From: Strigamia acuminata | Taxonomy: Eukaryota | Length of the DNA: 64,000 nt | NCBI GenBank assembly: GCA_949358305.1 | Contig: OX442314.1 | Span: 2,232,001-2,296,000 of the forward strand | Direction: 5' to 3' | Notes under the pieces: model-generated | What the model was told of the DNA's origin: nothing | Database searches by the model: none | What the model saw: only the letters and a program-made list of their open reading frames with translations | Part shown: piece by piece, positions 12,457 through 55,832 of the stretch | Position numbering within the stretch: position 1 is the stretch's first letter | Layout of the letters: every line of letters begins with the position of its first letter | Program-made: the position numbers and the translations under genes

Positions 12457-12604
12457 CCCTCGGAGGCATTTGGGTAAAATGTGCCGTTCTGGTACAACCC
12501 GTACCCATGTGTATTGGGCCGCTTGTATTTTTTGATGTTGCAAAAAAGAAAATCGTAAATTTCGAACTCAAAAAAAAGTTTTTAATCAAAATAAATAAAT
12601 GCAC
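12457..12604 (+). mobile_element. Possible piggyBac-like element end, interrupted by the Gypsy insertion
   Basis: TTAA|CCCT terminus. Subterminal GTGTATTGGGCC recurs at 12510 and, across the Gypsy, at 26713. Confidence 0.4.
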
Positions 12605-13276
12605 TGTTACGAATCAACTTAGATGTTTAATTGATTTGATCTGAATTTACGCGCAAGGTGATGTTAGCGCAAATCAGCGGGCAAAGTTCGTAGATTTACT
12701 CTGTTTGTGCCATCGTCATATGCGGATATCGGACGGTGAATAAACCTAACTCGCTGTAACACACATTATTTATATTCGACGGGCTCAATCTCACGTTGTG
12801 GGTCTTTACGTTTAAAAAGAATGAGTATGCGCAGTGATATTCGTATGCGGGTGGGCATAGGATGTCACAGGCATGCGAAGGGATAAAAGGTGGGCAAAAA
12901 GAGGCGCTATTAAGTGTTAAATTAGAAGAGGCGCGTGTTAAAGCGCAAAATAAAGATTGACAAACTCAATTCAATCTAAGAGGTGTTAACTCGTTGAAAG
13001 AGGTATGAGAAGTGTGGATTATGGATAAAAGTAGCGACCAGGTAAACATGAGTCATGTGACCAGGTCGATTGGAGTGGGTGAGGGGGTGGAAGGTATAAA
13101 ATAAGGTTAATTGTTGGAAATAATAAGATGCGCGCAATGAGGCTGCGCATATATTTAGAGATGATTCATCAATGTTAGATGAAAAGAAAGATTGGGAAAA
13201 AATAAGAAAACTTAAGATTGGGTCAGTCTAAGTTAGAAATGAATAAAAAAGAAGGGTGGGTAACCTGCCCGTGACA
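12605..13276 (-). repeat. 3' LTR of Gypsy element
   Basis: Direct repeat of 25937-26608; preceded on the minus strand by the PPT. Confidence 0.97.
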
Positions 13277-13290
13277 TCCCTCCCCCCTTA
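13277..13290 (-). promoter_or_regulatory. Polypurine tract
   Basis: Minus strand TAAGGGGGGAGGGA abuts the 3' LTR. Confidence 0.9.
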
Positions 13291-15174
13291 GGCTTTTATT
13301 ATTCGAGATTTATCGAAGAGAATAAAAGGATAAGAGACAAGGAAAGTCATACAATAATAATGCGCTATGCGCAAAAACTATACAAATTCTCAAAAAATAA
13401 ATTAAATAAATTAAACAACAAAAAAGAATGATGCGCGCCTGCGCAAAGACTTAACAACTTTGTCAAAAATAATGCACGTGGTGCAAAAACTTAACAACTT
13501 TGTCAAAATAATAAACAAAAGTTAAACAATACCAAATTAAATATCAAAAATCAATTAGATTATTAGAGACAGAGAATTAATAAATCACCATGGCTTTTGA
13601 AAATAAATTTAAACTAAGATTTTTGTAAAGTCACAATGGTAAATTTTAAATCATTCTACTCGAAATCACAAGACGAACAGGGACGACACAAGGAGGGCGA
13701 ACACTAAACCTAAAGGGGCCGACGATACCTAGGACGGACGAGAGTCTATACACTTTACCCAAACAATTTATAAAATAAAAATTTTAAACACTTTTACTTT
13801 TTTGTATAAACAAACTTCTGCTTTCTGTATAAAAATCATCGAATAAACAATTTTAAATTAAACAAAAATAAAGAGCCGACACATGAGAATTATCAAGAAT
13901 CAGGTTGGGATTTATTAATATCAAATTGGGTATTTATGTTATGGTAGGATGCGCGTAATTGCGCAAAACAAATACAAAATAAAGGTAAGGTACAAAATTA
14001 TGCAACCTGCATAAGGTAAGTATGATTTCAGATTAATTAGGAACTTTTAAATGGATGCGCGAACTTTGCGCAAGGATAATTTAGGTTATTAATTCTATGA
14101 ATGAAATGGAAAATAGAAACATATAAAATATTATAAAACATAACAAATACCCGCGCGCACAATACTACTCGTATTGCCACGGAATTAAATATGTTGATCA
14201 GAAGATATCACAAAATTAAATGAAGGGTCAAAAAAGTATCACAATAATCTTGATTAAATGCTAAATAATTAAAGAAAAATATTCATTAAATAAATTTAAA
14301 CATTGAATACTAACTTGGATCATTCCAGAATAATTGCGCTAAAATAAAGGTTAACTGAAATCAAATGAAATTAAATTCAAAATTAAATAGAATTAAATTC
14401 CTAATCTTTAGGACGATTGTTATAATTAAATGAAGGTAATTCTGGAATGATTATAGCACAAAAAAAATATCAAAATCATTAAACTAGAATAAATATTTCA
14501 ATAATATGACTAGAAAATTATCGAAATCATAATTGCACTTAAATAAAATATAATTGTAGTACTAAAAATCTAATTGTCCGATTCTAAAGCACTAAAAACG
14601 TAAAAATAATTAAATAAAATATAAATTATCAGTGAGGATTATCACAATAGAAAACTTGCGCAAAAATAATAACATTTATGATGAAACACTAATAATAATT
14701 ATTTGTTCTTCAAATCGACACATTACCGCTGCCCAAGCTCGTTCCATCAAGTCCTCCAACTCGAGAGATGTTTTACGGAGCGCCTCATCAATGGAATCGC
14801 ATGGCGGAACGGAAAAATGATGAAGATTTAAAGATGATAAAGTTTTGTGGATACCATGTAGATATTGGAATGCAGGCCGGCCCAAACTCAACGCACAAAT
14901 GCGGAGATGTTTTATTAGGGCATTTACCAGAGATCCACGATCTGGCGGCGCATTTTGGACACAATTAGAGATGAAAATATGATGAAAACACAAAATAATG
15001 ATGAATGGTAGGTTGAAGTGCGCACAAAGTCTTCGCAAATCACCAGGATCCTCGTATCAAGTCCTTCAACTCAACGCCGAAGCGGAGGAATTTTACGAAA
15101 CGCCCATTGATGTGATCTCCTGACTTCAATTTGCAAAAAACTTGCGCACACAAAGTCACGTTTAGGATTGTTGT

Positions 15175-17448
15175 TCACTCGAATTCCAAGGTTTGACGAT
15201 GTTGAGGATCTCGGAAATAGATTAGCATATTAAATGCCACTTCTACCACAACACGTCGCGCATCTTGGAATGAACGTGCGCCCTGCCGATTTATCTCGAA
15301 AAGACAGTGAGCCAAAAAATATTCTCCATACCTCCGGTAGAGAAGATGCAACAATGGATCAGCCTCCGAACGAAGCATATGCAAGTCCGCAATGGCTAAA
15401 GATCGGAGAAGCTGTCGCTGAGCCCGAATCGACATATCAAATTGGAGACATCCTCGTTCTCCCTCAGCAAAGTTACAACGAATCGTGGTGGGAGGCATCA
15501 AGCTTGGAAGAAGTTCCAAAGTTATGAATGGTTGGGTTGCATCCCACTCACCTCGTCTTGTGCGTGGGGCAGGAGGCAGGAACACGTATCGATAAACAGT
15601 CGAACACCGTATTTCGCGCAATTCGGTTAAACGGGTCCGCTCTCGATTTCGTCTGAATTCCTCCTCACTAGCCTCCTCCACGGCTCGTCTATCTGCCCAA
15701 TGTCGCTCGCCGAGTCGTTCTATCTCCATCTCATATCTTCGCATATATTCCAGATTTCGTCGCTCGTCGCCTCCCCTTCTATCTACGTGATGTCGGTCGG
15801 CGAGTTGTTTCCTCTCCATTTCATACCTTCTTCGGTATTCCGGATTTTGTCGTTCGTCGCCTCCCTCACGTTGCTCACGTCGCCTTAGAACCTGGTGAAG
15901 CACTTGGGAGACCTCCTCATGCATTACCCATATTAATAACTCCAGCGCATTTACGCGGTCGTAAAGGTCACATTGACTCAAGCGATGCTGAATCTGGTTG
16001 GACATGGTACGTATGCGTAGAAGCATTTCGTTAAATACTTCTTGAAAATCGGCTTGTAGGATATTAAAATCACGGTCCATCATAAAATTTATCAAAGTTA
16101 TCCAACCTCGACGCTCCATATAGAATCTGGATGGTGAGGAATGCACATCTTGCGCATATACATTTACCTCATATCGGTTCAATAATTCGTAAATAACTTC
16201 AAACGTATGCACCGGTTTTGTGCTAATTCCAGACCTGTCTGTGAATAAATCACAATGAGTAGCTGACGTAGTTGTTGATGTACCATCGCCCAGCTGGGGT
16301 TGCGCTGATTCTAAATGCGACCCTGTCAAGTATAGTCGATCAGAAATAGTTACTGTGCTGTTAGGGGGTATAGTTGCGCTGGTGTTTCCCGGGGGTGCAT
16401 TTGGTACAACTCGAAAATGAGATATAAGGACAGGAATTTTGGATTTTTGCGAAGTCTCACGAGGTACAATCTTTACTGTTGCTCGCCTACTCAGTTCACC
16501 TGAGACTGGTCTTCTGGTTGGGGATTGTGGCAAATTGACTGTACGCGGATCCCTTGCTTTCTTCTCAGGTCCTTGCGCATTTATAACTTGATCAGGAGGT
16601 GTCTCGATGATTACCTCATTGATTGATCCTAATAATGGCGGAGTAGTACTCAACTCGGATCCACAGTCTCGCACTGGCGGCGTGCTGGCCCGTTCCCGCT
16701 CAATCTCCTCGTTTTCCTGTTCTATCCTTCCGTCTGATACTGCACTGTCGCATTCACAACATAAATTCAAAGTCAAATCCGGGGATGCAGGTGTCAGGCT
16801 AGGTTGCGCTTCAAACCGCGACGAGGCGCTTGCAAATAACGCATCATCGTCACCACTGCTCCAGCTATCATCAGATTCGACTGGCAAATCCGACAAATGC
16901 GCAACAGCCCGCGCAATAGCCTCTTGAACCTGGTGTACATTACCATCGAGGGTTTCCTGAAGAGATGAAATAACTTCTCGTCCCATTATTGCACGCGTCG
17001 ACGACTGCTCACGATGTAATGGGTCCTCAGCCGGTGAATCAAGAAGTTGGGCGATGTTGGTACCAGGGTAAATCCATTGTCGAAGATTAATATGACTTGT
17101 CTGCGCCAATCGTCGCGCACGCTGCCAATACCAGCGGTGTACCGTCTCAAATCGCAGAATTGAAGCCGGACTTCCGTTGAGCGACCTAAACGGCGGAAAT
17201 GTAACGCCGCCAATATTTATGTTGTCTTGCCTGCGTCGACGTAACACCCATCCAAAAATCTGTCTCATCCAAACCGCGAATAAATCCCTCGGCAAGTCGC
17301 CATTCCCGTTGCACGCTCGACAGGTGAGAGCGGCTCGCGGCGGGTCCTCCTCCATACCATGGCCTGAGCAGACCGGGCATATCTCGTGGCTCGGAAAACC
17401 CGTACCGAATGCTTCTACAAAAGGTTCCTCGTCCCGATTGGAAGCCAT
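15175..17448 (-). CDS. Accessory ORF3 of the Gypsy element, unknown function (probable start MASNRDEE at 17448; frame open from 17517)
   Basis: Long uninterrupted ORF inside the LTRs on the pol strand. Contains CPVCSGHG/CRACNGNG; no signal peptide or transmembrane segment seen. Confidence 0.85.
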   Translation of the reverse strand: MASNRDEEPFVEAFGTGFPSHEICPVCSGHGMEEDPPRAALTCRACNGNGDLPRDLFAVWMRQIFGWVLRRRRQDNINIGGVTFPPFRSLNGSPASILRFETVHRWYWQRARRLAQTSHINLRQWIYPGTNIAQLLDSPAEDPLHREQSSTRAIMGREVISSLQETLDGNVHQVQEAIARAVAHLSDLPVESDDSWSSGDDDALFASASSRFEAQPSLTPASPDLTLNLCCECDSAVSDGRIEQENEEIERERASTPPVRDCGSELSTTPPLLGSINEVIIETPPDQVINAQGPEKKARDPRTVNLPQSPTRRPVSGELSRRATVKIVPRETSQKSKIPVLISHFRVVPNAPPGNTSATIPPNSTVTISDRLYLTGSHLESAQPQLGDGTSTTTSATHCDLFTDRSGISTKPVHTFEVIYELLNRYEVNVYAQDVHSSPSRFYMERRGWITLINFMMDRDFNILQADFQEVFNEMLLRIRTMSNQIQHRLSQCDLYDRVNALELLIWVMHEEVSQVLHQVLRRREQREGGDERQNPEYRRRYEMERKQLADRHHVDRRGGDERRNLEYMRRYEMEIERLGERHWADRRAVEEASEEEFRRNRERTRLTELREIRCSTVYRYVFLPPAPRTRRGEWDATQPFITLELLPSLMPPTTIRCNFAEGERGCLQFDMSIRAQRQLLRSLAIADLHMLRSEADPLLHLLYRRYGEYFLAHCLFEINRQGARSFQDARRVVVEVAFNMLIYFRDPQHRQTLEFE

Positions 17449-18258
17449 GTTGGTTTCAATATTCGTTGGGAATATAATGCGCCTAAGTTGGTGGAGGTAA
17501 TGCTTATATAAATACACAGAACAAATAATACGTTTGACAAACGATACTCACAATTACGACGCGCAACAACACGAACGCGCACAGAACGAAACAAACAACG
17601 AAGACTAAAGAATATTCCCCGGAATGTAACGAGTCATAAAACTTTGCTTCGAGAAGCTTCGATGAACGATTGAAAACTCGCACATGTAATAAAGTCGGGT
17701 TCGAGGTTAAACACTAACTAATTGCAATTGAAGGGCGACATTCAGTGTTGGAATTCGGAAGTTAGCGAAGGTTGTCTTCGCTCAAAACTCTTGTTTTAAA
17801 GTGATTAAATAAGGATGGTGAGATAAACAAGTAATAATTCAGAACACAGAATATTAATTTAAATAAAGTGCGCATAAATTATATTGATTGAATAATTTAA
17901 ATGAATTGTGGAAATAGCCACGTGCTATTGTTTAGAGGTTAATTGGCATTGCGCACTCTGGTGACGGACATAGTCCCTGATTGAAATGGACTTAGCCATT
18001 TTCGAGTGACCGAATATGAACATAAAATACATAACACAAAACATTAAATATAAAATATAAAGAAAACATAAAATAACATAAAACATAAAAATTTAGGATG
18101 AATAAATTTAAAATAAAGGGAAAAATAGTTTTTAAACAAAATAGGTAGTAAAGATAGATTTACACCGGATTACACTTGGTTTTTTTTTTTTTTTTTTTTG
18201 TTGTTTCGTTTGTGTTTTCCCTTTTTTTTTTTTATTTAGCTTAAAAAATAGAAGAAAA

Positions 18259-21200
18259 TTACTTAAATGAAAGAAAATAGGCAGAAAAAATATCTAAAGT
18301 GTTGACAGCAAAAATTTCAACATGTTTATCAATAATTTCAACGTCTTTTAAAGTTAAAAAGTTGGCCTCGGCAAAAAACCAATGTCGCAATTCCACGACA
18401 TTATAAGGCTGGGTTTTTTGGCCGTTTTCATCCATTAGGATTACTGTATTGGGGCCCACCAATCTGTGTATAATATATACACCTTCAGTCCGTTGGCGTA
18501 AACCTGCTGCGAATTGTTTATCGGCAGATGAAGGTTGCCGATTGCGCAAAGTTACCCAGTCGCCAGGACGGAAGTCATGGGGGCGCCGTTTTAAATCGAA
18601 CCATTTTTTGTGTCGAATTTGGGACTCGCGCAAGTTGTTAATCGCGCTTTCTCGCATTCTACGCATATGTTCGTGCAAGTTTTCAGCTTCCACGGGCGGC
18701 AACGGTTCTCCGTCATCCGTGTCGCTATCCAGGTCGCCCGGAAATCGAGCTTCCTGGCCTGTTACCATTTTAAAGGGTGAATACTTTAAAGAAATTTGAT
18801 ACGCTGAATTAATCGCGAGCACGAAATAGCCAATGTTGACGTCCCATCTAGTATGGTCATCATCAATATATGCTAATATACAGTTCTTTAATGATTGGTT
18901 AAGCCTTTCCGCAATATTACCTTGCGGGTGGTATGCGGCGGTATATCTATTTATTGCGCCAAGTTGCTGGATTTGGCTACGAAATTCTGGTGAGCGAAAA
19001 GCAGGCGCATTATCGCTGATAATTATTTTGGGAAAACCCCATCTTTTGCAGAATTTCTGAATTTGTTTCACCGTAGTGGCTATATTTGAGTTTTCGGTTA
19101 GACGTACGTCTAACCATCGGCTAGCAGAGTCGACCATCACAAAGGCATAGCAATGTCCCTCTGTGGATCGAGGTTTCTTGCCGTAATAGTCGATGTAGAT
19201 AGCGGAGAAAAGACGGCGCGATCTGGACATTATCATTTTTCCATATGGGAGCCTGTTAAGGGGTTTAGCTCTTTGACACGCTTCGCAAACCTGTATCCAT
19301 GTTCGAATATCTTCGCGCATTTTTGGCCAAAATACGCGCGATTTAATGCGATGGAGTGTTCGTTCTTGCCCCATATGTCCAACTACGGGAGGATAGTGCA
19401 TTGCGCGGAAATATCTTTCTCTGAGTTCAAATGGGAGATATATTTGGCGCCTCTTTCTAATTTCATTAATATGGACAGGAGGGAAGCGACATAACATCTC
19501 TTTATACATGCCGAAATCTTGCGCGTCAGCCACAATTTTGGCAGCCTCATCTGGATCAAGTGGTAACATTTGGGCAGTTAAATAAAATATCAACTCACGC
19601 GACCAGGGATCCTGTCTTTGCGCCGCAATGATTTCAGCAGCAGTAGGCAACAGCTCGAACGGAGGATGTTCGATTGGTGGATCGTGCTCCAATTCGGCTT
19701 GCTTCTCTGCTTCAGTCCTCGAATCTTCAATTACTGTCCTTTCCCGTCGCGGACGCAATCTCGATGGAGTTCTTCGCGCTGATGTTGGGGGCGCATAATA
19801 ATTCCTCGTTGGTGGCGACATGTCACGAATGGGTCCAAAACTGTCTTCAGATGATGTAGAGTCAGAATCCGGGTCCGAAGTATATCCCTCTGGCCTCTGC
19901 TGTCCTGATGGTCCCGCCGCATCGTCATACATCACTGGTTCAGAATGTTGACGCGGAGAAATAATAGGAAAATCAGTGATAGGAATTGAAGGAGTTGGGG
20001 AAGGAGTTGGTAAATTTGGAATTTCAGGAGAAGGTTTAGTAGTAGGCCTTCGGTGGCTATCAGGTTGAATTATTGGTGCGGGGACTCCAGTGATTCGACG
20101 GAAATTTCGTCGTATTTTATCCACCAAAGTTCCAGGTGTCGGCAATTGTGATGGTGCCGAAGCAGTCTTTTTTCTAAAACTAGACGGATTTATTGGCGCA
20201 GGAATTCTGGTTGGAATAATTGCCGAAGGAGGAATGGAACTAGGAATAGGAGTGGATATTGGAGTTGCAGGAGGGGTAGGAATAGGTAAGGGTGGTGGAA
20301 TTAAAACTGATTTAGATTTGGGTTTCACCACATGGGAAGGAATAGCGGATTTACGTCGCACTGCCTTCAACTTTCCTACTTGCTGTGATTTCAATAACTT
20401 TGGAAATGTCCACTTTTTAATAGTTCCCGCATACCTGGGTGGTAGCCATGGTGGTGTTTTAGGAATCAAAGATGGATCCTTTAATCTAGCCCGAGTTCGT
20501 GTGGCTATTGCTCGTTTAGCATGAGGAGATAAAATTGGTACAATATCAATTTTACGTGGTCTTCCTCGTTTCTTTATCAGAATTGGGATTAAAGAGCGCT
20601 GTCGGCGGGTTCGTAAAGGCACTGAAACACGAACTGGTGATAAATTAGGAGTTTTTACTTGTGAGGTTGGTTGCGCAACTGGAACTGATGCAACCGGAGG
20701 GATTGTAACCGGCGGTGCCCTCGTTGGAGGAGTAGCTACGCCAGTAGAAGATGGAATTTGCGCACCTGAAGTCGGCGCATTTCCAGTCACTTTCTCTTTA
20801 CCAGTAGGTCGAGGAATAAGAGATTTTTTCTTATTTTTCTTCTTAGTCGGTAAAGAAGCTGCAATGAGAGGCACTTTTTTGAATTTAGATTTAAATAACT
20901 TTCGAAACTGCAAATTAATGTCTTTTGGCAATTCCTTGATGATATTGAGTGCCGGCCACTCGTTGCAATCATCAAAATAGGCAAGGTAGCACGCCTCGTC
21001 GACCTCCGGGCTATCATCCTCATCGTCGACTTCAGGTGGGTCGACAGGAGCTCGACTCAGTGCATCCGCTACCTTATTTTTGCATCCTGAACAGTGCAAA
21101 AATGTGAATTTATAATCACTCAACGATAATACCCAACGGGCCAAACGTCCAGTTGGTTCCCTTTGCTGAAATAACCACTTAAGAGATTGATGGTCGCTCT

Positions 21201-23865
21201 CGAGGTAGAATGGCATCATCTCGAGGTATGCACGAAAGCGTTTGACACCCCAAACCGCGGCCAAACATTCGATTTCGGTTACTTTATAGTTCTTTTCAGC
21301 GCTGTTTAATGCGCGAGAGGCAAATGCGATTGGAATTCTCACACCTTCATCGTTAAGTTGCATTAAAGCAGCACCTAATCCAGAATAACTAGCATCGGTC
21401 TGCAGTATAAATGGTTTTTTCCAACTGGGAAAACGTCTTTTCAGTGTTGGTATCGCAATCTGGTCTTTCAGATATTCGAACGCTGATTGCTGCGCATCTG
21501 TCCAAATCCAAGTTGCGTCCTTTTTAAGCAATGGTCGGAAAACTTCGCTAATTTTGGAAAAATTTGCAATGAATGATTGGTAATAACCTACCATGCCTTT
21601 AAATCGTTGTAATTCGCGCAAATTGGTTGGCGCGGGATAATTTTGAATAGCAACCACTTTCTTTGGATTTGGTGTAATCTGGCCAGATTCCACTATGTGT
21701 CCCAAAACCTCGAGTCTTTTTTGACAAAGCTCAGTTTTGTTGGCGTTCATGGTGAATCCAGCGTTGAACAATTCCTCTAAAACGAGGCGCAAATGTTGCA
21801 CGTGTTCCTCGAAAGTTCGGCTAAAAATAATCACGTCATCAATATACACAAATACAAATTTGTAAAGATACTTTGCAAGAGTCTTATTCATCGCTCGTTG
21901 GAGGGTAGCGGGTCCGTTGATAGGTCCGAAAGGCATGCGCACATATTCGAATAAACCTCGATGTGTTATAAAAGCTAAATACCGTTCGTCACCTTTGCGC
22001 ACGCCGATCTGATGGAAAGCTTCGCGTCCGTCGATTATCGAAAACCAATGCGCACCTCCCAAATATGCAAAGATGTTATCAATGTCCGGAAGGGGGTAAA
22101 CGTCCGGAATTGTTTGCGCATTAATGGGGCGAAAATCCATAGCAGTTCTCCATTCACCTGTCTTCTTGGGTACGACGACTGGAGCAACAGCGCAATCACT
22201 TTGGGATCGCCGAATAATACCTTGCTGCAGCTTTTTGTCGATATATTTATCAATTATCGCCTTTTTCGCAGGGTTCACCGGGCGCACAGGGACATGAATT
22301 GGACGAAAATCCGGTTTCAGGTTCACCTCGTACTCGGTGTTATTACATAAACCAATTTCTTCGCGAAAGATTTGCGAAATGGGCTGCAATGTTTTGATTA
22401 ATAGTTTTATCTGTGGCACTGTCAATTGGTTCCACAACTGGTGGTAAATCCAATCTAAATCGGTCGGATCTCCACTAGGTTGGTACTGCAAAAAATTAAT
22501 GTCATTAATGTTCATTTTAGAGTTATTCCCACCATTGTCAGGTTGCGCAATCGAAAAGATGTTGATTTTCGACTCCTTCTTGGCATTGATGTCTTTAGCA
22601 CGTTGCGCAACGAGTTGTTTGGCAATTGGACGAATAACATTGATTTTTCGTCGTAAACGTCGTAATCGTCGGAACTGACTCAAAGTTAATTTACGTAAAA
22701 TTGTCTTTTTTAAATTGGAGGAAATTTTAGAAGTTTCTTTCCTCTTTGGGGACCAAATATTCGACCATTTGCGTTGCGCACGATGTCGAACTTGTTTAAC
22801 TCGATACTGCGCATCGTCATGTGGATACTCGAATATTTCTTGTTGCAAGGGTCTATGCGCCAGGAGGAGGCAGTTAATTTCACTCACCGGATCCGGTTTC
22901 CTTAGTATTTTCGTCGGAACGATCTCACTAATGGCCGCCGGTGGGTTGGATGGATCCTGCGTTTCTTCCGGCGCAAATGGCAAAACCAGAATTGACTCTG
23001 ACTTTTTTGCTTCTTCATAAGTCATGAATTTGCGAATCTCATTTGAGCCCACCATGCTCCACTGTTGTCTCGCATGGTCGATGTCGATTCCGGCCGCTGT
23101 GCAGAAATCACGTCCAAGGAGCATATCCATTTTGGCATCGGGTAAAACCATGCAAATGAATTTTATTATGCCTATTGGGGCGCGCAAAGCGAGCTGCATC
23201 GATTTGGTGGAATCCACTATGTCACCAGACGCGACCTGCACCCGCTCGTGGAGATTCACAAAGTCCAAACCCATTTTTTCGTGTAGTTGTTGGAACACGT
23301 CCTCACTCATTACACACGTTTGTGCGCCTGAGTCTAGAAGCGCAGTACAAGCTACATTAGCCCAGGAAATCTTTACGCAAGGTGCTTTCTTGCACAAACG
23401 ATCCCCGCGCGTTATCTCAATGATGGGTTCTTGAGTTTCTTTAAGTTCCTCTGGCGTTAACATTACGAAAGATACCTTCATAGGAGAGATCACTTCCTTT
23501 GGAGCCTCAGTCGTTGTTGCACTGGAAGTAGACTTAATTATTGGTAAAGTTTTAGTAATTTTACTCACTATTGTCACTTTCGGGTTTTTCTTCGAAATTA
23601 CAGGTTGCAAATCTGTTAATTTCGGCAATTCGTCCTTTACAGCTTCAGGAACGGCAGTCTGCAGATCTGACGCCTTTGTAGCTGAGGTGATGATGGAAGA
23701 TGATGAAGAAATAACACTACTTACAGGTTTATACTCTGAAAGAGTAATAACAGTAGGAGATGTTGTTAAATTAACCTGTGAAGGATCGTCCTCTTTCAAG
23801 TTAATTAAAGGTGAAGCGCGTCGTTTGGATTTCAGACGTTTTGCGCGAAGGGCCGGTCGACTCAT
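18259..23865 (-). CDS. pol: Gypsy Pol polyprotein (PR-RT-RNaseH-insert-IN), 1868 aa
   Basis: LLDSGA protease, YVRMPFG/YIDD RT, QTDAS..EIECLA..SDHQSL RNase H, H..GH..CEAC zinc finger, integrase IDYYG/SDNA/AERLN. Confidence 0.97.
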   Translation of the reverse strand: MSRPALRAKRLKSKRRASPLINLKEDDPSQVNLTTSPTVITLSEYKPVSSVISSSSSIITSATKASDLQTAVPEAVKDELPKLTDLQPVISKKNPKVTIVSKITKTLPIIKSTSSATTTEAPKEVISPMKVSFVMLTPEELKETQEPIIEITRGDRLCKKAPCVKISWANVACTALLDSGAQTCVMSEDVFQQLHEKMGLDFVNLHERVQVASGDIVDSTKSMQLALRAPIGIIKFICMVLPDAKMDMLLGRDFCTAAGIDIDHARQQWSMVGSNEIRKFMTYEEAKKSESILVLPFAPEETQDPSNPPAAISEIVPTKILRKPDPVSEINCLLLAHRPLQQEIFEYPHDDAQYRVKQVRHRAQRKWSNIWSPKRKETSKISSNLKKTILRKLTLSQFRRLRRLRRKINVIRPIAKQLVAQRAKDINAKKESKINIFSIAQPDNGGNNSKMNINDINFLQYQPSGDPTDLDWIYHQLWNQLTVPQIKLLIKTLQPISQIFREEIGLCNNTEYEVNLKPDFRPIHVPVRPVNPAKKAIIDKYIDKKLQQGIIRRSQSDCAVAPVVVPKKTGEWRTAMDFRPINAQTIPDVYPLPDIDNIFAYLGGAHWFSIIDGREAFHQIGVRKGDERYLAFITHRGLFEYVRMPFGPINGPATLQRAMNKTLAKYLYKFVFVYIDDVIIFSRTFEEHVQHLRLVLEELFNAGFTMNANKTELCQKRLEVLGHIVESGQITPNPKKVVAIQNYPAPTNLRELQRFKGMVGYYQSFIANFSKISEVFRPLLKKDATWIWTDAQQSAFEYLKDQIAIPTLKRRFPSWKKPFILQTDASYSGLGAALMQLNDEGVRIPIAFASRALNSAEKNYKVTEIECLAAVWGVKRFRAYLEMMPFYLESDHQSLKWLFQQREPTGRLARWVLSLSDYKFTFLHCSGCKNKVADALSRAPVDPPEVDDEDDSPEVDEACYLAYFDDCNEWPALNIIKELPKDINLQFRKLFKSKFKKVPLIAASLPTKKKNKKKSLIPRPTGKEKVTGNAPTSGAQIPSSTGVATPPTRAPPVTIPPVASVPVAQPTSQVKTPNLSPVRVSVPLRTRRQRSLIPILIKKRGRPRKIDIVPILSPHAKRAIATRTRARLKDPSLIPKTPPWLPPRYAGTIKKWTFPKLLKSQQVGKLKAVRRKSAIPSHVVKPKSKSVLIPPPLPIPTPPATPISTPIPSSIPPSAIIPTRIPAPINPSSFRKKTASAPSQLPTPGTLVDKIRRNFRRITGVPAPIIQPDSHRRPTTKPSPEIPNLPTPSPTPSIPITDFPIISPRQHSEPVMYDDAAGPSGQQRPEGYTSDPDSDSTSSEDSFGPIRDMSPPTRNYYAPPTSARRTPSRLRPRRERTVIEDSRTEAEKQAELEHDPPIEHPPFELLPTAAEIIAAQRQDPWSRELIFYLTAQMLPLDPDEAAKIVADAQDFGMYKEMLCRFPPVHINEIRKRRQIYLPFELRERYFRAMHYPPVVGHMGQERTLHRIKSRVFWPKMREDIRTWIQVCEACQRAKPLNRLPYGKMIMSRSRRLFSAIYIDYYGKKPRSTEGHCYAFVMVDSASRWLDVRLTENSNIATTVKQIQKFCKRWGFPKIIISDNAPAFRSPEFRSQIQQLGAINRYTAAYHPQGNIAERLNQSLKNCILAYIDDDHTRWDVNIGYFVLAINSAYQISLKYSPFKMVTGQEARFPGDLDSDTDDGEPLPPVEAENLHEHMRRMRESAINNLRESQIRHKKWFDLKRRPHDFRPGDWVTLRNRQPSSADKQFAAGLRQRTEGVYIIHRLVGPNTVILMDENGQKTQPYNVVELRHWFFAEANFLTLKDVEIIDKHVEIFAVNTLDIFSAYFLSFK

Positions 23866-25832
23866 TTGCGGCCTGGTTCCACCGGCTTCCCGAACTTCAG
23901 GCCTTCGGAGTTTTCCGGTCTCCTAAATGGCTGGTAACATATGGGGCACAACGGATGCCAAGTTGCTGTATCTACCAAATACCACCAATCCTTCGGTGTT
24001 TTCCTCCAGGCTGTGCCTTTCTCAGGACATTTGACAGTTAATGGTGGTTTTGGCGCTGGTGGAAACGTGACAATTGACGTAGAGCACACATGGTCCTTTG
24101 GGACGTCTGCTGGAGGTGTCAGAGTAGCTAAATTTATTTTAATTGTTGCCTTCTGAGCCGCCTCGGCGACTGTGCTCTTCTTAATTTCAGGTTCAGCATC
24201 CGTGTCGCTGCTACTACTACTCGTATCGGGTTCCTGCGCAGGTGGAGATTGTTCTGGTCTCGCCTGCACTGCAGCTAACTCGATTAAGAATTGTTTTCGA
24301 TACCTCGCAAAACGTTTGACGTCCTGGGACACGAGAGATTTGACATCATCGTCTCCTTTGGACTTCTCCGCAGCCTTGAGCACTGTGGGGCGTTGCGCAT
24401 CACGCAGAGAGGGCATTCGTTGATCAGCCATACCCAGATCTTTGTATTCGTCTGCTCGAATGGTGTCCAGCTGTAGACGATTGTCGATGTCATTACCTCT
24501 TTGGATCGCCTCGTCCAGCGAGTTTACGTTCCATGCGCGCAAGAGATGAACAACTTCGGTTTGCATCATGTTCTGAGCTTTCTCCCATTGGAGCTCTGGG
24601 TCGGTATATCCTGCAACCTGAAGATAATATACAATCTCACTTAAAAATGACATCGTAGACTCTCCATTTCGTTGCTTTCGCTTGGATAGCTTCACATTGG
24701 CCGCTGCCGAATTCATGGCGAAAGCTCGTCGAAATAATATCTCAAAGTCCTCCCATGTTTTTGGTTTTGGTTTTAGTGATAACCACCATCGCTGCGCTCT
24801 TCCACGCGTTGCTTGAATGACAAATACTTTTAAATATTCATCCACCGGGGCCTGCATAGAATACATGTGCGCGTACAAATGCGCAAGAAAAAGATTAATG
24901 TAATCAAGATCGGCTTTATCTGGATCAAACAAAGGTGGTTTTCCAGGCTTGAAACAATTTTTATCTTTACTTGCGTGTTGCGCTCTTACTGACGGCAGTG
25001 ACAACTTTGCCTTGGTGTCGGATCTATCCCGAGGATATCCCATCTTGGAGTATAGCATCGAGCTCATTAAATCTCGATTTGCTCGTGTTGAATGGTCCAA
25101 ATGAGCAGATTCCTGTGATGGAGCCTGGGTATAGATCGTTGCCATCGTCGGCATTGGCGGCGTGGTTGTTGTGTAAACAATTTGCGCAGCCTGCGCGGAC
25201 ATTTTCGTCTGCTGGCCTCGATGTTCAACTTCCCGATGCTGGTGCGGACATGCTGTGGGAAGTCCCAAATCATATGGTGCCGAGGTGCCTTTAACTCTTA
25301 TGGAGCCATGCGAGGATCCACCGTCTAGAGACCGTGCGGTCCCTGTTCGTAGAGAGCGAGGGCCTTGTTGGAATATTTCGCGAATCTCATTTACTAGACC
25401 TCGTGTTTGAGCATAGTATTGGTTGCGCAAGTCGGACATCAGCAAACCTTCCGTATTTAATGTGACGGGGTCTACTAATGCTCTAGGCTGAGTCGAATCG
25501 AAAAAAGATGGCGCCGCCAAAAAGTTAGCGGGTGTTGACGTGGCAAAATTTACTTGAGGTTGCGCTCGTGAATTTGCAACAGCCATTGTCATGATATGAT
25601 TTGATGGGGCTGGCTGTTGTTGCGCAATACTCACAAGCGTTTCCTGTTGTTCGATACGACTTCTTCGTAATTGGTCGTGTTGCTGCCACTCTCGAAATTC
25701 CCTTTCCTCTTCCCGGCGAACACCACTCCTCCGTTCGGACTGTTGCCATTCCTGCTCCATTTCTAACTCACTGAAATCAAATGGATCGCGCGTGACGGGA
25801 CGAATTCCGTCACCTCCCAACTGTCTCGACAT
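23862..25832 (-). CDS. gag: Gypsy Gag, 656 aa
   Basis: First ORF after the PBS; retrotransposon capsid-like GRAQRWW..TWEDFEILFRRAF..KRKQRNGES motif. Confidence 0.9.
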   Translation of the reverse strand: MSRQLGGDGIRPVTRDPFDFSELEMEQEWQQSERRSGVRREEEREFREWQQHDQLRRSRIEQQETLVSIAQQQPAPSNHIMTMAVANSRAQPQVNFATSTPANFLAAPSFFDSTQPRALVDPVTLNTEGLLMSDLRNQYYAQTRGLVNEIREIFQQGPRSLRTGTARSLDGGSSHGSIRVKGTSAPYDLGLPTACPHQHREVEHRGQQTKMSAQAAQIVYTTTTPPMPTMATIYTQAPSQESAHLDHSTRANRDLMSSMLYSKMGYPRDRSDTKAKLSLPSVRAQHASKDKNCFKPGKPPLFDPDKADLDYINLFLAHLYAHMYSMQAPVDEYLKVFVIQATRGRAQRWWLSLKPKPKTWEDFEILFRRAFAMNSAAANVKLSKRKQRNGESTMSFLSEIVYYLQVAGYTDPELQWEKAQNMMQTEVVHLLRAWNVNSLDEAIQRGNDIDNRLQLDTIRADEYKDLGMADQRMPSLRDAQRPTVLKAAEKSKGDDDVKSLVSQDVKRFARYRKQFLIELAAVQARPEQSPPAQEPDTSSSSSDTDAEPEIKKSTVAEAAQKATIKINLATLTPPADVPKDHVCSTSIVTFPPAPKPPLTVKCPEKGTAWRKTPKDWWYLVDTATWHPLCPICYQPFRRPENSEGLKFGKPVEPGRK

Positions 25833-25912
25833 GATGAAGAAAATGTGAAATGATTAAATAAATAACTCAAAAAACTAACCTTTTCGCGCGTTTAAGCCTT
25901 ATAGGTGAGAGC

Positions 25913-25932
25913 GAATCCTGTCAGGCTCGCCA
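25913..25932 (-). promoter_or_regulatory. Primer binding site, tRNA-Arg type
   Basis: Minus strand TGGCGAGCCTGACAGGATTC resembles the complement of the tRNA-Arg(ACG) 3' end; 4 nt from the 5' LTR. Confidence 0.75.
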
Positions 25933-25936
25933 TGTT

Positions 25937-26608
25937 TGTTACGAATCAACTTAGATGTTTAATTGATTTGATCTGAATTTACGCGCAAGGTGATGTTAGC
26001 GCAAATCAGCGGGCAAAGTTCGTAGATTTACTCTGTTTGTGCCATCGTCATATGCGGATATCGGACGGTGAATAAACCTAACTCGCTGTAACACACATTA
26101 TTTATATTCGACGGGCTCAATCTCACGTTGTGGGTCTTTACGTTTAAAAAGAATGAGTATGCGCAGTGATATTCGTATGCGGGTGGGCATAGGATGTCAC
26201 AGGCATGCGAAGGGATAAAAGGTGGGCAAAAAGAGGCGCTATTAAGTGTTAAATTAGAAGAGGCGCGTGTTAAAGCGCAAAATAAAGATTGACAAACTCA
26301 ATTCAATCTAAGAGGTGTTAACTCGTTGAAAGAGGTATGAGAAGTGTGGATTATGGATAAAAGTAGCGACCAGGTAAACATGAGTCATGTGACCAGGTCG
26401 ATTGGAGTGGGTGAGGGGGTGGAAGGTATAAAATAAGGTTAATTGTTGGAAATAATAAGATGCGCGCAATGAGGCTGCGCATATATTTAGAGATGATTCA
26501 TCAATGTTAGATGAAAAGAAAGATTGGGAAAAAATAAGAAAACTTAAGATTGGGTCAGTCTAAGTTAGAAATGAATAAAAAAGAAGGGTGGGTAACCTGC
26601 CCGTGACA
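25937..26608 (-). repeat. 5' LTR of Gypsy element
   Basis: Direct repeat of 12605-13276; adjacent to the PBS. Confidence 0.97.
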
Positions 26609-26864
26609 GCACCTTGTAGAACAAACATTGGGCTTTATTTAAAAAAAAAATAAAATTTTAACTTAAATGGGCCAAAAGTTATGGCTATTTGAATTTGCGT
26701 CACTTGGCACAAGTGTATTGGGCCACCACGCTAATTGCCTCAAGTGAGTTGGGCCGGCAGAAAAAGCTTAGCACCACATCCGAAAAATCACACAAAAAAC
26801 TGGTTTCTTCAGAAAATCATTGTTTATTGGAACAATACTTTACAATATTTTGTTGAATAACCAA

Positions 26865-27103
26865 AATTTTGTATGTGATTGTGCAGGCCAAGTCAAAACC
26901 TAAATGTGATGGGTTTGGAAAACTGAGCAAATGACTTGACTTTATGTTTAGAATCATTTTCCTGCTGAAATATCCATGTCAAAGGCAGTTTATCATCTCC
27001 AAATTGAAGCATAACAATCCTTCAATACTTTTTCATAAGTATATTGGTCCATGATATTCTTAATTTAATGTTGTGGACCGATACACATACAGGAAACCAT
27101 CTC
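26865..27103 (-). mobile_element. Tc1/mariner transposase remnant
   Basis: Frameshifted translation gives IGP.H.IKNIMDQYTYEKVLKD / WIFQQENDSKH / LTWPAQS, typical Tc1 catalytic-domain motifs. Confidence 0.75.
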
Positions 27104-30100
27104 TGTGGAAACTGGAGTTCCTGTAGAAGTCAACATTTAGGGGGAATTGTAGGTGGCGCCATGTTTGGCCACCAGAGGGTCACTTCGGTGACCCACTCTG
27201 TACTGGGATGATTTATTGTTAGAATTAAGGGTAGGGAATAGAACATTACCTATTTCCGTTTTTGAATAAATTAATTACTGTTCAAATGTAAATCCGTGTG
27301 TACGCATGCTTTATTTGTCATCCACAAGATTCAACCAAATTCAACAACCATCAAGTATCCAAAGTAACTTTTATTTGTTCAACATAACATTTTGAGTTGC
27401 ATCCGCAACATTGGTGCCGAAAACCCGAGACCTTTTAAAAGAAAAACCAAGGAAAATCGATCGCAATGACGGATTTGGAGAAGAATCGAAGACAAAGGGA
27501 AGCCGCGAGGACTAACATTCGAAATATTTTCAACACATTGAAACATGAAATAAAACAAGATCCGGTAAATGAAGTAAAACTTTTATGCATACAAGCACAG
27601 TTACTTTTAAAGGGACCAAAGATCGAGAAGTTGGACATTCTGGTGGCCGACGCCATCACCGACATTGACGAAGTCACGGACGATACGATTGGAGCCGAGG
27701 AGTTCCAAGACGAATTGGTAGCAGCAAAAGTCACGCTGGAAATGGCTTTGAAAGAAATCACACAACTGAAACCGCAAGTACTAAATCCAAACTTACCACT
27801 TATTAATCCCGTTATCGTTAATACGCCGATCGGAGGCCAACAATACACAAGCATGAAATTGCCGAAGCTGGAAATTGCCAAATTCAGGGGAACACCCGAA
27901 ACGTGGACTCAATTCTGGGGAGACTTCCAGTTAAGCGTGCATAACAACACTTCGCTTCCCAAAACGGCGAAGTTCGTGTATTTGCGATCGTTGGTCGAAG
28001 GATTGGCCGCCAACGCGATAAGTGGACTCACGGTAACGAATGAAAATTACGACAGCGCGGTCGGTTTGCTGGCAAGTAGATTTGGTAAACCGGACTTGAT
28101 AATAAATGCACACATGCAAAAATTCCTCGAGGTGAAGCCCGTGAAAAATGCAGAAGATGTTGTTGCACTTCGAGAACTTTATGATTATTGCGACCTTCAC
28201 ATAACAAGTTTAGGAAATTTAGGAGTGGATGCATCAACGTTTGGGGCACTCTTGGGCCCAATTTTAACTCGTGCGACGCCCGATTCGATGCAACACAACT
28301 TTTCCAGATCCAGAGGCGAATTACCATGGTCGATGACAGATTTTCTGAAGTTTTTCCGATTCGAAATCGAGATGCGCGAGAGGACGAAGGCGATGAGTGA
28401 TAAAAACAACTTGATCGAAAAGAAAGAAACTACTACGAAAAAACAAGAGGAAGTAACTAAGAAAATAAATACAAAGAATAATCCACTTGGTTCCGCCGCA
28501 GCTTTGACAACAATCACGTACAAATGCACATTTTGTCAAAAAGAAGAGCATACGAGCCCAAACTGTCCGCTGACTCTTGCCGAACGTAAAGCTGCGTGCA
28601 TGAAGTTTCGAAGATGCTATCGTTGTCTCAAGGAGGGACACATCGCCTCCAGATGCAAAACTCGATTTCGATGCAAGAACTGCGAAAAGAATCACCACAC
28701 TTACCTGTGCGACGCTGAAGAGAAGAAACCAATCGAGACACTGACCTCATCCGCCGTTTTGGAGCAGGAACAACCAGTATCCGTGATGTTTTTGCAAGTA
28801 CTCGTTGTAGATGCGTGCGGACAATCGAAAAAGCGTAAAGTACAGTGTTTTTTGGATGGCGGGTCGCAGAAGACATTTATTACGGAGAAGTTGTCTCGAG
28901 AACTGAACTTGGAACGAGTTGGCGAACAAGATATTGCATTGTTAACCTTTGGAGCAACCGAGCCAACAATTGCGAAGAGAAATCGAGTGAAACTGTTAAT
29001 GAATAATTGCGACAATGTTGCCTTTAATTTAGAAGTCGAAGCACTAGAAACTCCGTGGATCACACCAGCGCTGAAGGGACAGACTGACCAGAGAATACTG
29101 AGCGAACTGAAGAAACACAACATCAAATTGGCAAGCAACGGAAATGTTCAAATGGACGATGGAGTTTCGATTTTGATCGGAGTGGACAATTTTTGGAAAG
29201 TGACCACCGGAAAACAACACCGACTTGGAGAAAATTTAATGGCAATAGAAACGATTTTCGGTTGGACTTTGCACGGCTCATCTGGGGAGAATAAAGAGAC
29301 AGTATCGGCGCTCGTACGGGTAAATAAAATCCTTGTAATTGACAATACTAATGAGCTTTTGGAGAAATTTTGGAGTTTGGAGGCAATCGGGATTAAACAC
29401 GAGACCGTGGAACGAAACGAGGACGAAGAGCAAACATTGAAACGATTCAAGGAAAGCATCGAATGGGTACAAGACCACTACGAAGTCGAACTGCCGTGGA
29501 AACTGAACGCCAAAGAACTGGACGACAACCGACAACCAGCATTAAAAAGATTTTGGAGTTTGGTCAATCGATTTAGAAAAAATCCGAAGCTGTATTTACA
29601 ATACAAAGAAGTGATCACGGAGCAACTTAGAACTGGAATTGTCGAAGAAGTACCACAGGAAACTGGAGAAAATAACCCAATTTATTATATTCCACACAGA
29701 CCCGTGATCGACGAGACAAGAGCAACGACCAAACTTAGAATCGTGTACGACGCTTCCTCACACGCGAAAGGATGCTTCTCATTGAACGACTGTTTATACA
29801 AGGGATCGAACTTATTGCCAAAATTACTAAACGTGATTCTCAAATTTAGAACAGGAATCATCGCAGCCATCGCGGATATTGAAAAGGCCTTCCATCGCAT
29901 CCATTTGAAGAAAAAAGAACGCGATGTCATGAGATTTCTTTGGCTCGAGGAAAACTGGAATGGAACCGAACCAGCGAAGATAAGGGAACTCAGACAAACA
30001 CGAGTGCCGTTTGGTACATCCCCCAGCCCTTTTCTCCTCTCGGCCACCATCGATCATCATGTCGAAGACTTCAAGGAAGAATATCCGGAAACATGCAAGC

Positions 30101-32985: not shown

Positions 32986-33077
32986 ATCTCCAAGCCATTT
33001 TACTATTGGGATGGCTTGGGGATGGTTTCCTGTATGTGTATCGGTCCACAACATTAAATTAAGAGTTTCATGGACCA

Positions 33078-33651
33078 ATGAAGAGAAGGAGCGTGAGTTT
33101 TGAGGTCGGCGAGAAAGTTACCATCAGAGCGCATAAGCTGCCAGATCCAAGTTTATTTCAAATGAAGGCCTTTTTGCCCTTGACGGAGGGGGTATTCGAG
33201 ATCAAGGAACTTTACGGCGATAACATTCTGCTGTTGGAGGACGTAGAGGGCAAATCCGAGCCGTTCTTGACCAACGTAGATAGAGTTCAACTCTGGCAGG
33301 ATAGCCCAGATCAAGAGTTAGAGAGTCATTCAACGCCCTCAGTTTGAATTTATTGTGACCCGTTTCTCTCTTAATTTTAGCTTGTTTTTGTTAGCGTTCT
33401 AGTTGCTCTCGGTTTACTGTTCGGTTTGGGGAGGGGAGAGGAGTGTGTTGATTTTGGGGGGGGGGATAATGTAATAATGGGAGTTTTGCCTGATGCGAGT
33501 GCGGGTTGTTGTGAGAGAGAGCGCCATGTTGGCATTCCTACGTGTAATTTGGATTAGATTTACATTTGCTTCTTATGGATTAAAAGTCTGTTGTTCACTT
33601 TGATTTATTCAGTGTTTACTGGATTGGCGCCCAAACCCACGCAGAATCACA
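33078..33651 (+). mobile_element. 5'-truncated Gypsy remnant: integrase C-terminus, PPT and 3' LTR (33470-33651)
   Basis: KRRSVSFEVGEKVTIR..TEGVFEI..NVDRVQLW aligns with the end of the Pol above. G-tract at 33455-33465 is followed by a TG...CA LTR like 12011-12182. Confidence 0.85.
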
Positions 33652-35397
33652 TTAGGCATTATGGATTTATGGACAATTTTCAGGTCAATTAGTTAAAGTG
33701 CTGTTTCGATTTTTGAAAGTTCGCAACTAATTTTATAGAGGGATAGTTACGAACAGTGGAAAGATATATTTTTTTTACCAACTAGTGATTGGTTTAAACA
33801 CAACTGCTAAATGCGAAAAGCTGTTAACTTAAGCGCTCTTTCTTAGACAGCAAAGCCAGCATAATAGTTTTGCTGGAGTTTTATGGGGCAAAAAATTCGC
33901 ATTTAGCATAATTAATTAAATAAATGACCAATGATATATTTCACAGTTTGGTTTCAATCAGATTTTTAAACCTCTGAGGGGACTGTTGTCGCATCAATAC
34001 TCATTTGTGCGCACTTACCTGATTTTCTTTGTCGCCGCCCGATCGCAAAATGAAAAAAACACCAAGCTTAAATATATATCTCTCTTATTGAGGAAAAGGT
34101 GGGGTAGTGTTCAGCGTGCACCATCAGCGATGACTGCGTGATGAGTGATGGAGAGGAGGGCGAGTCATCACGACCACAATTGGAGACACGCGAATGCACG
34201 TGTGCTCCAGCCATCAGGTCACTCACCGACCACCCTTTACTCCCCCCTTTATGTGTTTCGTTCTAAGCCGACTGCCCCGTAATCCAATCACCATCCTGAG
34301 GGAATGGTCTCTAAAAAAATAAAACCATCAAATATCGCGGTGTTGCACCCTAACTACACATAATTTCAAATTTTATTTTTGTTATAAGCTATGTATCTAT
34401 TATTTATTTAGATGGAGAAGTTCTCCATATTTTTACACTAGAGCTGAAGACGAGGAAATAATAGGTTTCGTTGGAGTGATGAATGCTATAGATACAGAAA
34501 TGAAATTCCGGCCATGGAGATATTTATACTAGTATATCTCGTCAAGCGATGTTGGTATTTTTTGGTGCCCAGCTACGATTCATTTAGAAAGCGTATTAGA
34601 TATTTATTTCGCGAGAATGAAGATCATTTTGCACTGAATTTTTTTGCATTAATTTCACCGTTCAAGAATTTCTTGCTATATTTCCGAATCCAGAAGCACA
34701 TTTCGCAAAACAAGATCTTAGAATGAACATCTCATATCAAGACCACATCAGCAGTTTTGTTCAGAATCGTTATCCGTTTGCCTACAAAAGGGACTTGCGG
34801 CGAGTTATCCTCCTTTTGAAAAGAGAAGTTAGTGTCTCTTTGTTGCAAATGCGCGTCGTACAAATAGATTACGTCGTTGCACACCCGATAGGCAGGATCT
34901 GTGAGGAGGCCACTTTTAGTACTCAAATTCTTTTAATGAGAAATGAAAGAGAGAGAGAGAGAAAATATTTCTTTAGTTTAGTTGGTCTATACCACTTGAG
35001 AAAGTAAACAGTTCACTGGAACTGGGAGGCAATCCAAATTCGGTGTTTCAACATAGGAAAACTTGTGGTTCATGAAAAAACACTCACGCTCGAGTAGACC
35101 TGAGAGATCAAAAACATTTGGTCGAAAAAACTACAAGAATTCATCCTGTTTTTGCAATTTCGGCAGCAGCAATTATTAGATTAATCATAATTACATTTTA
35201 AATCAGTCATTTCGGGAGAGGATAAAGGCCCGGCCGTTCAACCCGTTTTATTCGGTCTCGTAATGTTCCGACAGTTGAACACCATCAATTTATTACCGGT
35301 ATTATTATTACTGTGGTGCATCGTCGAATAAAAGCTGATTTTTGAATAAATTCCCCTCGGGAGCAATCTAATGTTTTCATCTAAGACAATAAGATCG

Positions 35398-54500: not shown

Positions 54501-55832
54501 ACGAGGAGGTAGAGAGTTGGATTTTACACCCCCCATACTCAAATAATATAATATGTAACCAAAACTTAAAAAATTCAAAAGAAACATAATTATCTCAGAA
54601 TTAAATCAGAAAAACAAAAAACACCACTGGATAGAGTAGAAAAAACTACACAAACTACAAAACAACAAAGAAACTAAGAGCTAAATTGGACAAAAAATCA
54701 GACGGAAAAGAAGAATTTGAAGCAACGAAATGCAACTTTGGAATGATAAATACGAAATTAGATGCGGAATTACGACGAAATTAGACAAAAACGATGCAAA
54801 ACCGGAAGAAATCGATTTGGATTTAGATAAAATCAACTCAACATCGCACGAAAATAATGAAAAAGCTGGACGACGACAGAGAAAGAGGCGAACATTTCGC
54901 AGAGAGAACAGAGTAGAGATATTGTAGAGATTCGAAATCTCTGCATTCTGTTCCATTAGGCCTAGGATTTTCAGCACTAAAATTTGCGAGAAATGGATAG
55001 ATAATACGAGAATTGAACCTTACATGAATGCCACGATGGATGGAATACGAACATTCGTCCATTCGTCCGTATTTAGAAATTTAAATCCTTCAAAATGGAG
55101 TTTGAGGAAGGAACAAGTAAAAAACGAGTAAAGAAAGAGATGAACCAAAGTGAACAATGGCCGACAACACTACGAGACACGAGACCTCATTGACTGACTA
55201 ATTGTTTTTTGATAACTCAATAAACAAATGTACAAACAAACAAAATAAATCGCAATTTGTTTTAAAAACACACACACACAAATACATTATTCAAATAAAT
55301 ATTTTCCAATGGAAAACTTCAATTATTTTGGATATTTTAAGTGGGAGAAGTAAGAGGCAATTTATATGCGGTTAGCGTCATTTCAATCAACTTTCCAACG
55401 ACATTATCGTTTTATTCCAGCTGGCCTTCAACTTTCCTGCACTAAAGAAATGCGCACGACATTGCACCAACAAATCGTGGTCAACAACACCAGAGTCCGA
55501 TGAGAAGGAATTTCTTCTTTCATTTATTTAGTTAATTCATTTTTTCTCTGGATGAACTAAACGTCAGGTGTCAGTTGTCCGTAGTCGAATGACTTTTTGC
55601 GTGTGAAAATTGACTTTTTCGTCTAAAAATTAACTTTTTGCGAGTAAAAATTGTCTTTTTGCATTTTGTATGTTTAAAAATAAATATATTTTTGGATTAA
55701 AAATTTCCCACTGTCTCAAAAACTCATTTTGACACTTAATTTTATAATTCAGTCTAAACTGAAGCCTCTCCTTATGGTGTGGGCGCTGTACTGGCACATA
55801 TTGATCAGCTTTGCCGCAAACTGCCACGATCA

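Follow-up and report, generated by a model that had tools for sequence, protein, structure and literature searches.

A cluster of SxIP-type motifs in the RNase H-integrase linker of a Ty3/gypsy retrotransposon from Strigamia acuminata as a candidate EB-binding tail

Analysis of a 64,000-nucleotide stretch of Strigamia acuminata DNA (contig OX442314.1, positions 2,232,001 to 2,296,000; hereafter the window, to which all coordinates refer) revealed a full-length Ty3/gypsy LTR retrotransposon whose Pol protein carries a long insert between RNase H and integrase, with a cluster of SxIP-type motifs and an AT-hook-type word. The insert was tentatively interpreted as a selected targeting tail, in which the SxIP-type motifs would bind host EB on microtubule plus ends and the AT-hook would grip chromatin; we assign this interpretation a probability of roughly 0.4. 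Tethering to EB was the best single reading of the data, a position that it holds at less than even odds.

The host element occupies positions 12605-26608 of the minus strand (14,004 bp) and is bordered by a 4-bp target duplication (GCAC). Its assignment to Ty3/gypsy was made based on the TG...CA LTRs, the target duplication, the primer-binding site, the polypurine tract, the PR-RT-RH-IN order, and the H2C2 finger and DDE core of the integrase. All catalytic words of Pol were present, with protease, RT, RNase H, integrase zinc finger and integrase core in gypsy order. The gag ORF gave a weak match to Retrotrans_gag (E 2e-4), under the Pfam cut-off. The stretch resembling a primer-binding site presumably corresponds to tRNA-Arg; tRNA and Rfam searches gave no match. 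The main features of the element are as follows:

25937-26608, minus strand: 5' LTR, 672 bp, TG...CA, identical to the 3' LTR
25915-25932, minus strand: primer-binding-site-like stretch, beginning with TGG, 4 nt past the 5' LTR
23862-25853, minus strand: gag ORF, 663 aa from stop to stop
18259-23922, minus strand: pol ORF, one open frame of 1887 aa with PR, RT, RNase H, insert and integrase
18262-19716, minus strand: integrase, with N-terminal helical extension, H2C2 finger, DDE core and C-terminal part
15175-17448, minus strand: orphan ORF3, 757 aa, with an N-terminal CxxC...CxxC finger
13277-13289: polypurine tract, directly upstream of the 3' LTR
12605-13276, minus strand: 3' LTR, 672 bp, TG...CA, identical to the 5' LTR

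At the gag-pol junction (23862-23922, minus strand), pol lies in the -1 frame and a heptamer G_GAA_AAC, which we take to resemble a slippery site, stands in register at 23910-23916; a second route is offered by the pol ATG, which overlaps the gag stop (ATGA). Between protease and RT there is a second very basic stretch, RRLRRLRRK (Pol aa ~375-450; 22540-22800, minus strand), which holds no SxIP. The internal sequence around ORF3 is largely non-coding, with about 1.9 kb at 13277-15174 and 0.8 kb at 17449-18258; a 126-codon frame at 14676-15056 (minus strand) had no Pfam match.

Contigs from three public runs, all of one organism, covered all 30 bins of the element, with variants at more than 1,200 places, and in each of the three runs there were contigs that ran directly from 12600 to 26609, the empty site. 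Taken together, this indicated a young, polymorphic insertion belonging to a multi-copy family. In an RT tree of 121 sequences, which did not include the Strigamia protein T1IZH5, the element was placed on a long branch with its nearest neighbours at about 1.5 substitutions per site, a position that suggested no named clade. None of five element proteins had an exact match in the protein collection searched.

The linker in question runs from the ADALSR of RNase H to the first integrase helix, and because its ends are conserved with the nearest relative, the variable insert could be delimited within it:

19642-21051, minus strand: RNase H-integrase linker, 470 aa, Pol aa 958-1427
about 19717-20988, minus strand: variable insert of the linker, Pol aa ~979-1402
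19933-20910, minus strand: basic, Pro-rich core of the linker, Pol aa 1005-1330

Using a common measure, which starts at the end of RNase H and stops just short of the finger, the linker was 533 residues long, vs. a median of 106 (maximum 521) in 115 of 120 RT relatives and a median of 68 (maximum 287) in 143 of 148 further relatives, making it the longest when compared to the 258 relatives measured. The claim of an earlier note, made from the letters of the window, that a long linker replaces the short one normal for Gypsy elements was thus confirmed. Two other linkers exceeded 400 aa (2 of the 115 relatives); these were unrelated and held one and no SxIP, respectively. Searches of contigs returned 0 and 1 distant loci from viral contigs, six distant loci at 33-39% from metagenome contigs and none from genome contigs, and the linker was short in the three of these seven loci in which it could be measured (77-121 vs. 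551).

The composition of the core (aa 1005-1330) was 20% Pro, 19% K/R and only 2% D/E, whereas the flanks were acidic, with Asp/Glu making up 32% of aa 958-1004 and 20% of aa 1331-1427. The basic, acid-poor context that had been ascribed to the stretch is therefore a property of the core and does not extend to its two ends. Disorder, which had also been proposed, was in agreement with an AlphaFold2 model built on a 28-sequence alignment, where the insert was predicted as coil with pLDDT mostly below 50 (a value also expected from the missing alignment depth at the insert) between a well-folded RNase H and a well-folded integrase. Additional domains were present in the precomputed Pfam annotation of some related Pol proteins, namely PHD and SCAN in P0040, PHD and PF05869 in P0062, and SET (PF00856) in P0063.

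All five SxIP words of Pol, and all eight words of the wider type [ST]x[IL]P, fell inside the linker, while Pol aa 1-175, the other low-complexity part of the element, had no motif of this type. These words were evaluated with the nine-residue EB-binding rule that PMC3649978 quotes from Jiang et al. and that has the form X1-X2-[ST]-X3-[IL]-P-X4-X5-X6 with a basic residue among X1-X4 and no D/E in X1-X6. Four of the eight passed (SLIP 1034, SLIP 1110, SAIP 1192 and TRIP 1238, named by their Pol residue numbers):

20812-20823, minus strand: SLIP, aa 1034, passes the rule; preceded by an NLS-like KKKNKKK
20584-20595, minus strand: SLIP, aa 1110, passes the rule; altered among copies by silent changes
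20461-20472, minus strand: SLIP, aa 1151 (DPSLIP), fails because of Asp at X1
20338-20349, minus strand: SAIP, aa 1192, passes the rule
20230-20241, minus strand: SSIP, aa 1228, fails for want of a basic residue; lies within an IP-rich run
20200-20211, minus strand: TRIP, aa 1238, passes the rule
20140-20151, minus strand: SQLP variant, fails for want of a basic residue

The five SxIP words that had been listed earlier were each found where they had been placed. As EB-type signals, two SLIP words and SAIP stood up to the rule, but DPSLIP, SSIP and the SQLP variant did not, and TRIP 1238 had been overlooked. The stretch combines the core motif and its nine-residue context with a basic, Ser/Pro-rich setting that is predicted to be disordered, the alignment behind this prediction being shallow. 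Spacings between the linker motifs were 76, 41, 41 and 46 residues. Recent tandem duplication was ruled out as their origin, since none of the 10 pairs showed similarity in their flanks.

Whether composition alone accounts for the motifs was judged from shuffled sequences and from natural controls. The linker holds five SxIP words, whereas 20,000 shuffles averaged 0.65 (P 0.00015), an excess that persisted with local-block shuffles (P 0.001-0.003) and with the 14 IP dipeptides kept in place (P 0.02); the exact word SLIP occurs three times, with 0.04 expected. Rule-passing motifs numbered four vs. 0.62 expected (P 0.002 with plain and 0.008 with local shuffling) and strict rule-passing SxIP words three vs. 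0.2 (P 0.0006 with plain shuffling, up to 0.04 with tighter nulls). With IP and LP dipeptides kept, the excess was weak (P 0.013-0.05 for the linker and 0.04-0.18 for the core). The expectation that the count would stand out from shuffled composition was thus borne out against plain and local shuffles, but held weakly once these dipeptides were fixed.

A control for looking elsewhere gave 11% of 600 shuffles with a three-letter pattern as enriched as the best one of the insert, and that best pattern was K-x-K-x-K rather than SxIP. What carries the case is therefore that SxIP is a motif known by name and that it occurs here in the setting proper to it. Within the basic half (aa 1005-1205) Ser stood two places before IP in four of six instances (binomial P 0.0008), compared to one of eight in the Pro-rich half, the split having been picked post hoc; this difference indicated that SSIP and SQLP are probably noise. 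Natural sequences pointed in the same direction as the shuffles: within any 250 aa, 193 of 268 relatives had no rule-passing motif, 71 had one and four had two, vs. four in the query, and of 155 basic, Pro- and Ser/Thr-rich 150-aa windows from 101 relatives, 151 were without SxIP and four had one, vs. two to four in the windows of the query.

Homologues of the insert outside the family were found neither among proteins of near length or shorter proteins nor in Pfam; in the 50%-representative proteins the flanks alone were matched, and an ESM Atlas search with the insert came back blank and was uninformative. The nearest named relative was UniRef100_T1IZH5, a gene model from the centipede Strigamia maritima, identical at 59 of 80 residues at the RNase H end and at 98 of 166 at the start of integrase. 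In T1IZH5 approximately 94 residues without SxIP take the place of the 470; because it is a gene prediction, the insert may have been spliced out. Out-of-frame or residual homology between its linker and the insert was not significant (P 0.09-0.9).

Variation among copies of the family could be followed between 20300 and 20860, where 40 of the 42 variant rows divided into 24 silent and 16 replacement changes. The resulting pN/pS was 0.25-0.32 (binomial P 1e-5 to 3e-4), for rows that pool several subfamilies and in part share codons. The insert thus shows signs of purifying selection within the family, as far as can be judged from pooled variants. Three variants fell inside the four SxIP words of this region, two of them silent and one at the free x of SAIP 1192. 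No variant was listed for SLIP 1034, a site where diverged low-depth contigs fall below the 3% threshold. Selection was spread across the whole block and not restricted to the motifs (14 silent vs. four replacement changes in aa 1087-1165). The Pro/Thr spacer accumulated seven replacement vs. four silent changes together with indels, which comprised whole codons (net 39 nt twice, and 15 nt).

In a contig diverged by 18-20% in RNase H/RT and in integrase, the aligned parts stood 1,663 letters apart, the same as in the window. Equal length in a subfamily diverged by about 19% indicated that the insert is older than that split. The sole patch of the diverged insert that aligned, at 80%, was the following island:

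20618-20682, minus strand: best-conserved insert DNA in the diverged subfamily, encoding TP and SPVR and no SxIP

SPVR in this island presumably represents a CDK-type consensus. Loose ends next to this island, each a single contig, from two runs and read by eye, showed KRRH-SLI and KRRH-SLIP-I at the place of RRQR-SLIP-I (SLIP 1110). In the KRRH-SLIP-I read, 18 of 30 letters were identical, and the three differences within the motif were all silent, while flanking residues had changed. SLIP 1110 was therefore probably kept in the diverged subfamily, which concerns one motif in what is probably one lineage. Another single-contig loose end, in a different register, resembled the fourth motif with Val for Ile and no preceding basic residue; its placement is uncertain.

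Two further motifs, both missing from the earlier note, lie next to the SLIP words of the basic half:

20551-20574, minus strand: AT-hook-type KKRGRPRK, Pol aa 1117-1124, five residues past SLIP 1110
20824-20844, minus strand: NLS-like KKKNKKK, just before SLIP 1034

We take KKRGRPRK to be an AT-hook, with putative DNA binding, on the basis of its R-G-R-P core and flanking K/R. Words of the type GRP[RK] occurred in 17 of 268 relatives and were downstream of the integrase core in all 15 with the core located, compared to upstream of the core in the query; their position on the integrase tails of relatives suggests that tethering tails are common on such integrases. In addition, 17 S/T-P sites are spread along the linker.

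ORF3 contains one more candidate motif, also absent from the earlier note:

16432-16443, minus strand: SKIP motif of ORF3, aa 336, fits the nine-residue rule by inspection, with a basic, acid-free nonamer

The SKIP lies in the disordered middle of the protein. ORF3 had no Pfam or Atlas match, and its N-terminal finger gave weak DnaJ-finger and anti-TRAP matches (E 0.02-0.03). An identity as env was ruled out, as there was no transmembrane stretch (the top hydrophobic 19-mer averages 0.94) and no match to an env family; the element is not an errantivirus (env-bearing gypsy). The Arg/Glu-rich part of ORF3 contains a 90-bp internal duplication (15673-15852). Summed contig depth, which is a poor measure, was several-fold lower on ORF3 than on gag-pol, so that many copies may lack ORF3 or differ there.

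The element thus shares with other Ty3/gypsy elements its LTRs, gag, PR-RT-RH-IN order, H2C2 finger, DDE core, the acidic patch after RNase H and the helical extension before the finger, but differs from them in the 533-aa linker, the motif cluster, an AT-hook before the integrase core, and an orphan ORF3 instead of env. Its motifs, in turn, resemble those of SxIP +TIPs such as CLASP2, APC, MACF, MCAK and STIM1 in presenting S/T-x-I/L-P in a basic, Ser/Pro-rich, acid-poor and predicted-disordered region, and those of CLASP2 in their several copies. Tandem SxIP motifs, or multivalency more generally, raise tracking (PMC5800807). A parasite acting on the EB hub of its host has a precedent in Theileria annulata p104, which recruits host EB1 through one SxIP, and the same study reported that credible matches can fail, as three Theileria proteins did not track plus ends (PMC3649978). 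Unlike p104 and the known +TIPs, for which EB binding and tracking were shown, the candidate motifs described here are read from sequence and lie inside a retrotransposon Pol.

Retroelements have been connected with microtubules before. In Caenorhabditis elegans, gypsy-type capsids of Cer1 reach the nuclei of germ cells with the help of microtubules; this was shown for whole capsids and for stable and dynamic microtubules, and the text of that paper contains no SxIP mechanism and neither of the terms "plus end" and "EBP" (PMC3315495). The HIV-1 capsid mimics EB and binds SxIP proteins, which is the opposite polarity and has in common with the present case that a retroelement engages the +TIP network (PMC8259435). 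For ERVK/betaretroviral integrase a single SxIP was predicted by ELM (aa 137-150) and listed with the DDE-region motifs, a lone match as opposed to the cluster in a disordered insert found here (PMC8303831). Within the literature covered, which included few subscription papers and no supplementary files, no SxIP cluster in an LTR-retrotransposon Pol was reported, and the only comparable result was this computational single-motif listing for ERVK integrase.

If the EB-tethering reading is correct, cleavage by the protease close to the conserved VDxxC patch (aa 975-985) would leave the insert as an N-terminal tail of integrase, and integrase multimers would display several SxIP motifs together. 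Pol products are inside the capsid during much of the cycle; the motifs would have to be exposed on the precursor before capsid assembly, or after uncoating. Growing microtubules could then deliver the integration complex towards the chromosomes, the most plausible place for this being the spindle of germ cells in division. Interphase plus ends mostly grow away from the nucleus. In the spindle their growth is directed at the chromosomes, so that delivery to chromatin in dividing germ cells would be the simplest gain. There the complex would be passed on to chromatin through the AT-hook, in the manner of MLV p12, and the nearby S/T-P sites might serve as a cell-cycle switch. The proposal of the earlier note that Pol/integrase complexes ride growing ends finds partial support in its sequence premises. 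That this amounts to an LTR retrotransposon lineage with a multivalent EB-binding integrase tail, assisted by the accessory SKIP, with a plus-end-tracking complex carried by spindle or germline microtubules, a hand-over to AT-rich chromatin by the AT-hook and perhaps a choice of insertion site, is a more doubtful proposition.

Quite possibly, the insert could instead be a tail of integrase for nuclear import and chromatin tethering, in which basic runs would act as NLS, the AT-hook would bind AT-rich DNA and nucleic acids would be bound more generally, with SxIP as a by-product of an Ile-Pro-rich, Ser-rich and basic composition. The AT-hook after SLIP 1110, the KKKNKKK before SLIP 1034, the AT-hook-type words on the integrase tails of relatives, the weakness of the motif excess with IP/LP kept, and selection acting across the block are all consistent with such a tail. 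Known tethers of this kind are MLV p12 and the AT-hooks of LEDGF/p75, small attachments to chromatin that act, in MLV, at mitosis; p12 is a Gag product and LEDGF a host protein, whereas the putative tether of the gypsy element is built into Pol (PMC5053271). Composition leaves unexplained the three exact SLIP words, the Ser before four of six IP in the basic half, the even spacing, and the silent-only change of a SLIP amid changed flanks, and a chromatin tether is compatible with EB-tethering rather than exclusive of it. The repetition and conservation of the word would also follow if [KR]-x-S-[LA]-I-P were selected for another partner, such as a different host protein, the capsid or ORF3 of the element, a cyclin docking site or a kinase, or if the basic segment bound the microtubule lattice directly. 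Two copies also fit a loose RxL cyclin-docking pattern, and the S/T-P sites and the TP/SPVR patch, as the best-conserved island, agree with another partner as well; against this, the motif class to which the words conform is well defined, they stand in the context expected of it, and ORF3 has a canonical SKIP, and we regard another partner as unlikely. The least probable explanation, already weakened, is a nearly neutral, expanded spacer that is freed by the protease and in which the open frame alone matters. The lack of homologues outside the family, the unrelated linkers above 400 aa in two of 115 relatives, and the replacement changes and indels of the Pro/Thr spacer are what such a spacer would show, but the low pN/pS, the equal length in the diverged subfamily and the motif excess are not.

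How LTR retrotransposons that lack env get to germline chromosomes after their time in the cytoplasm is still a largely open question, and we know of no molecular handle for their use of microtubules. An EB-motif cluster beside an AT-hook would, if true, constitute such a handle and would mean that a transposon mimics +TIPs. Should the motifs be incidental, the element is a young gypsy element of the ordinary kind that has an orphan ORF and a long tail.

Several other repeats were present in the window. The gypsy element itself lies inside another repeated sequence (12360-12604 and 26609-26900), as indicated by the many contigs that break at 12360 and by the high depth at the empty site. At a distance of 494 bp there is an intact BEL/Pao element (27103-32985, plus strand) with one 1758-aa ORF and identical 308-bp repeats. 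On either side of it stands a 59-bp inverted repeat (97% identical; 27043-27101 and 33021-33079), which is putatively a hairpin, or a small inverted-repeat element, that the BEL/Pao insertion divided in two. Another repeat was found in two 77%-identical copies (12011-12183 and 33470-33652). A small remnant of a degraded RNase H lies at 55758-55901.
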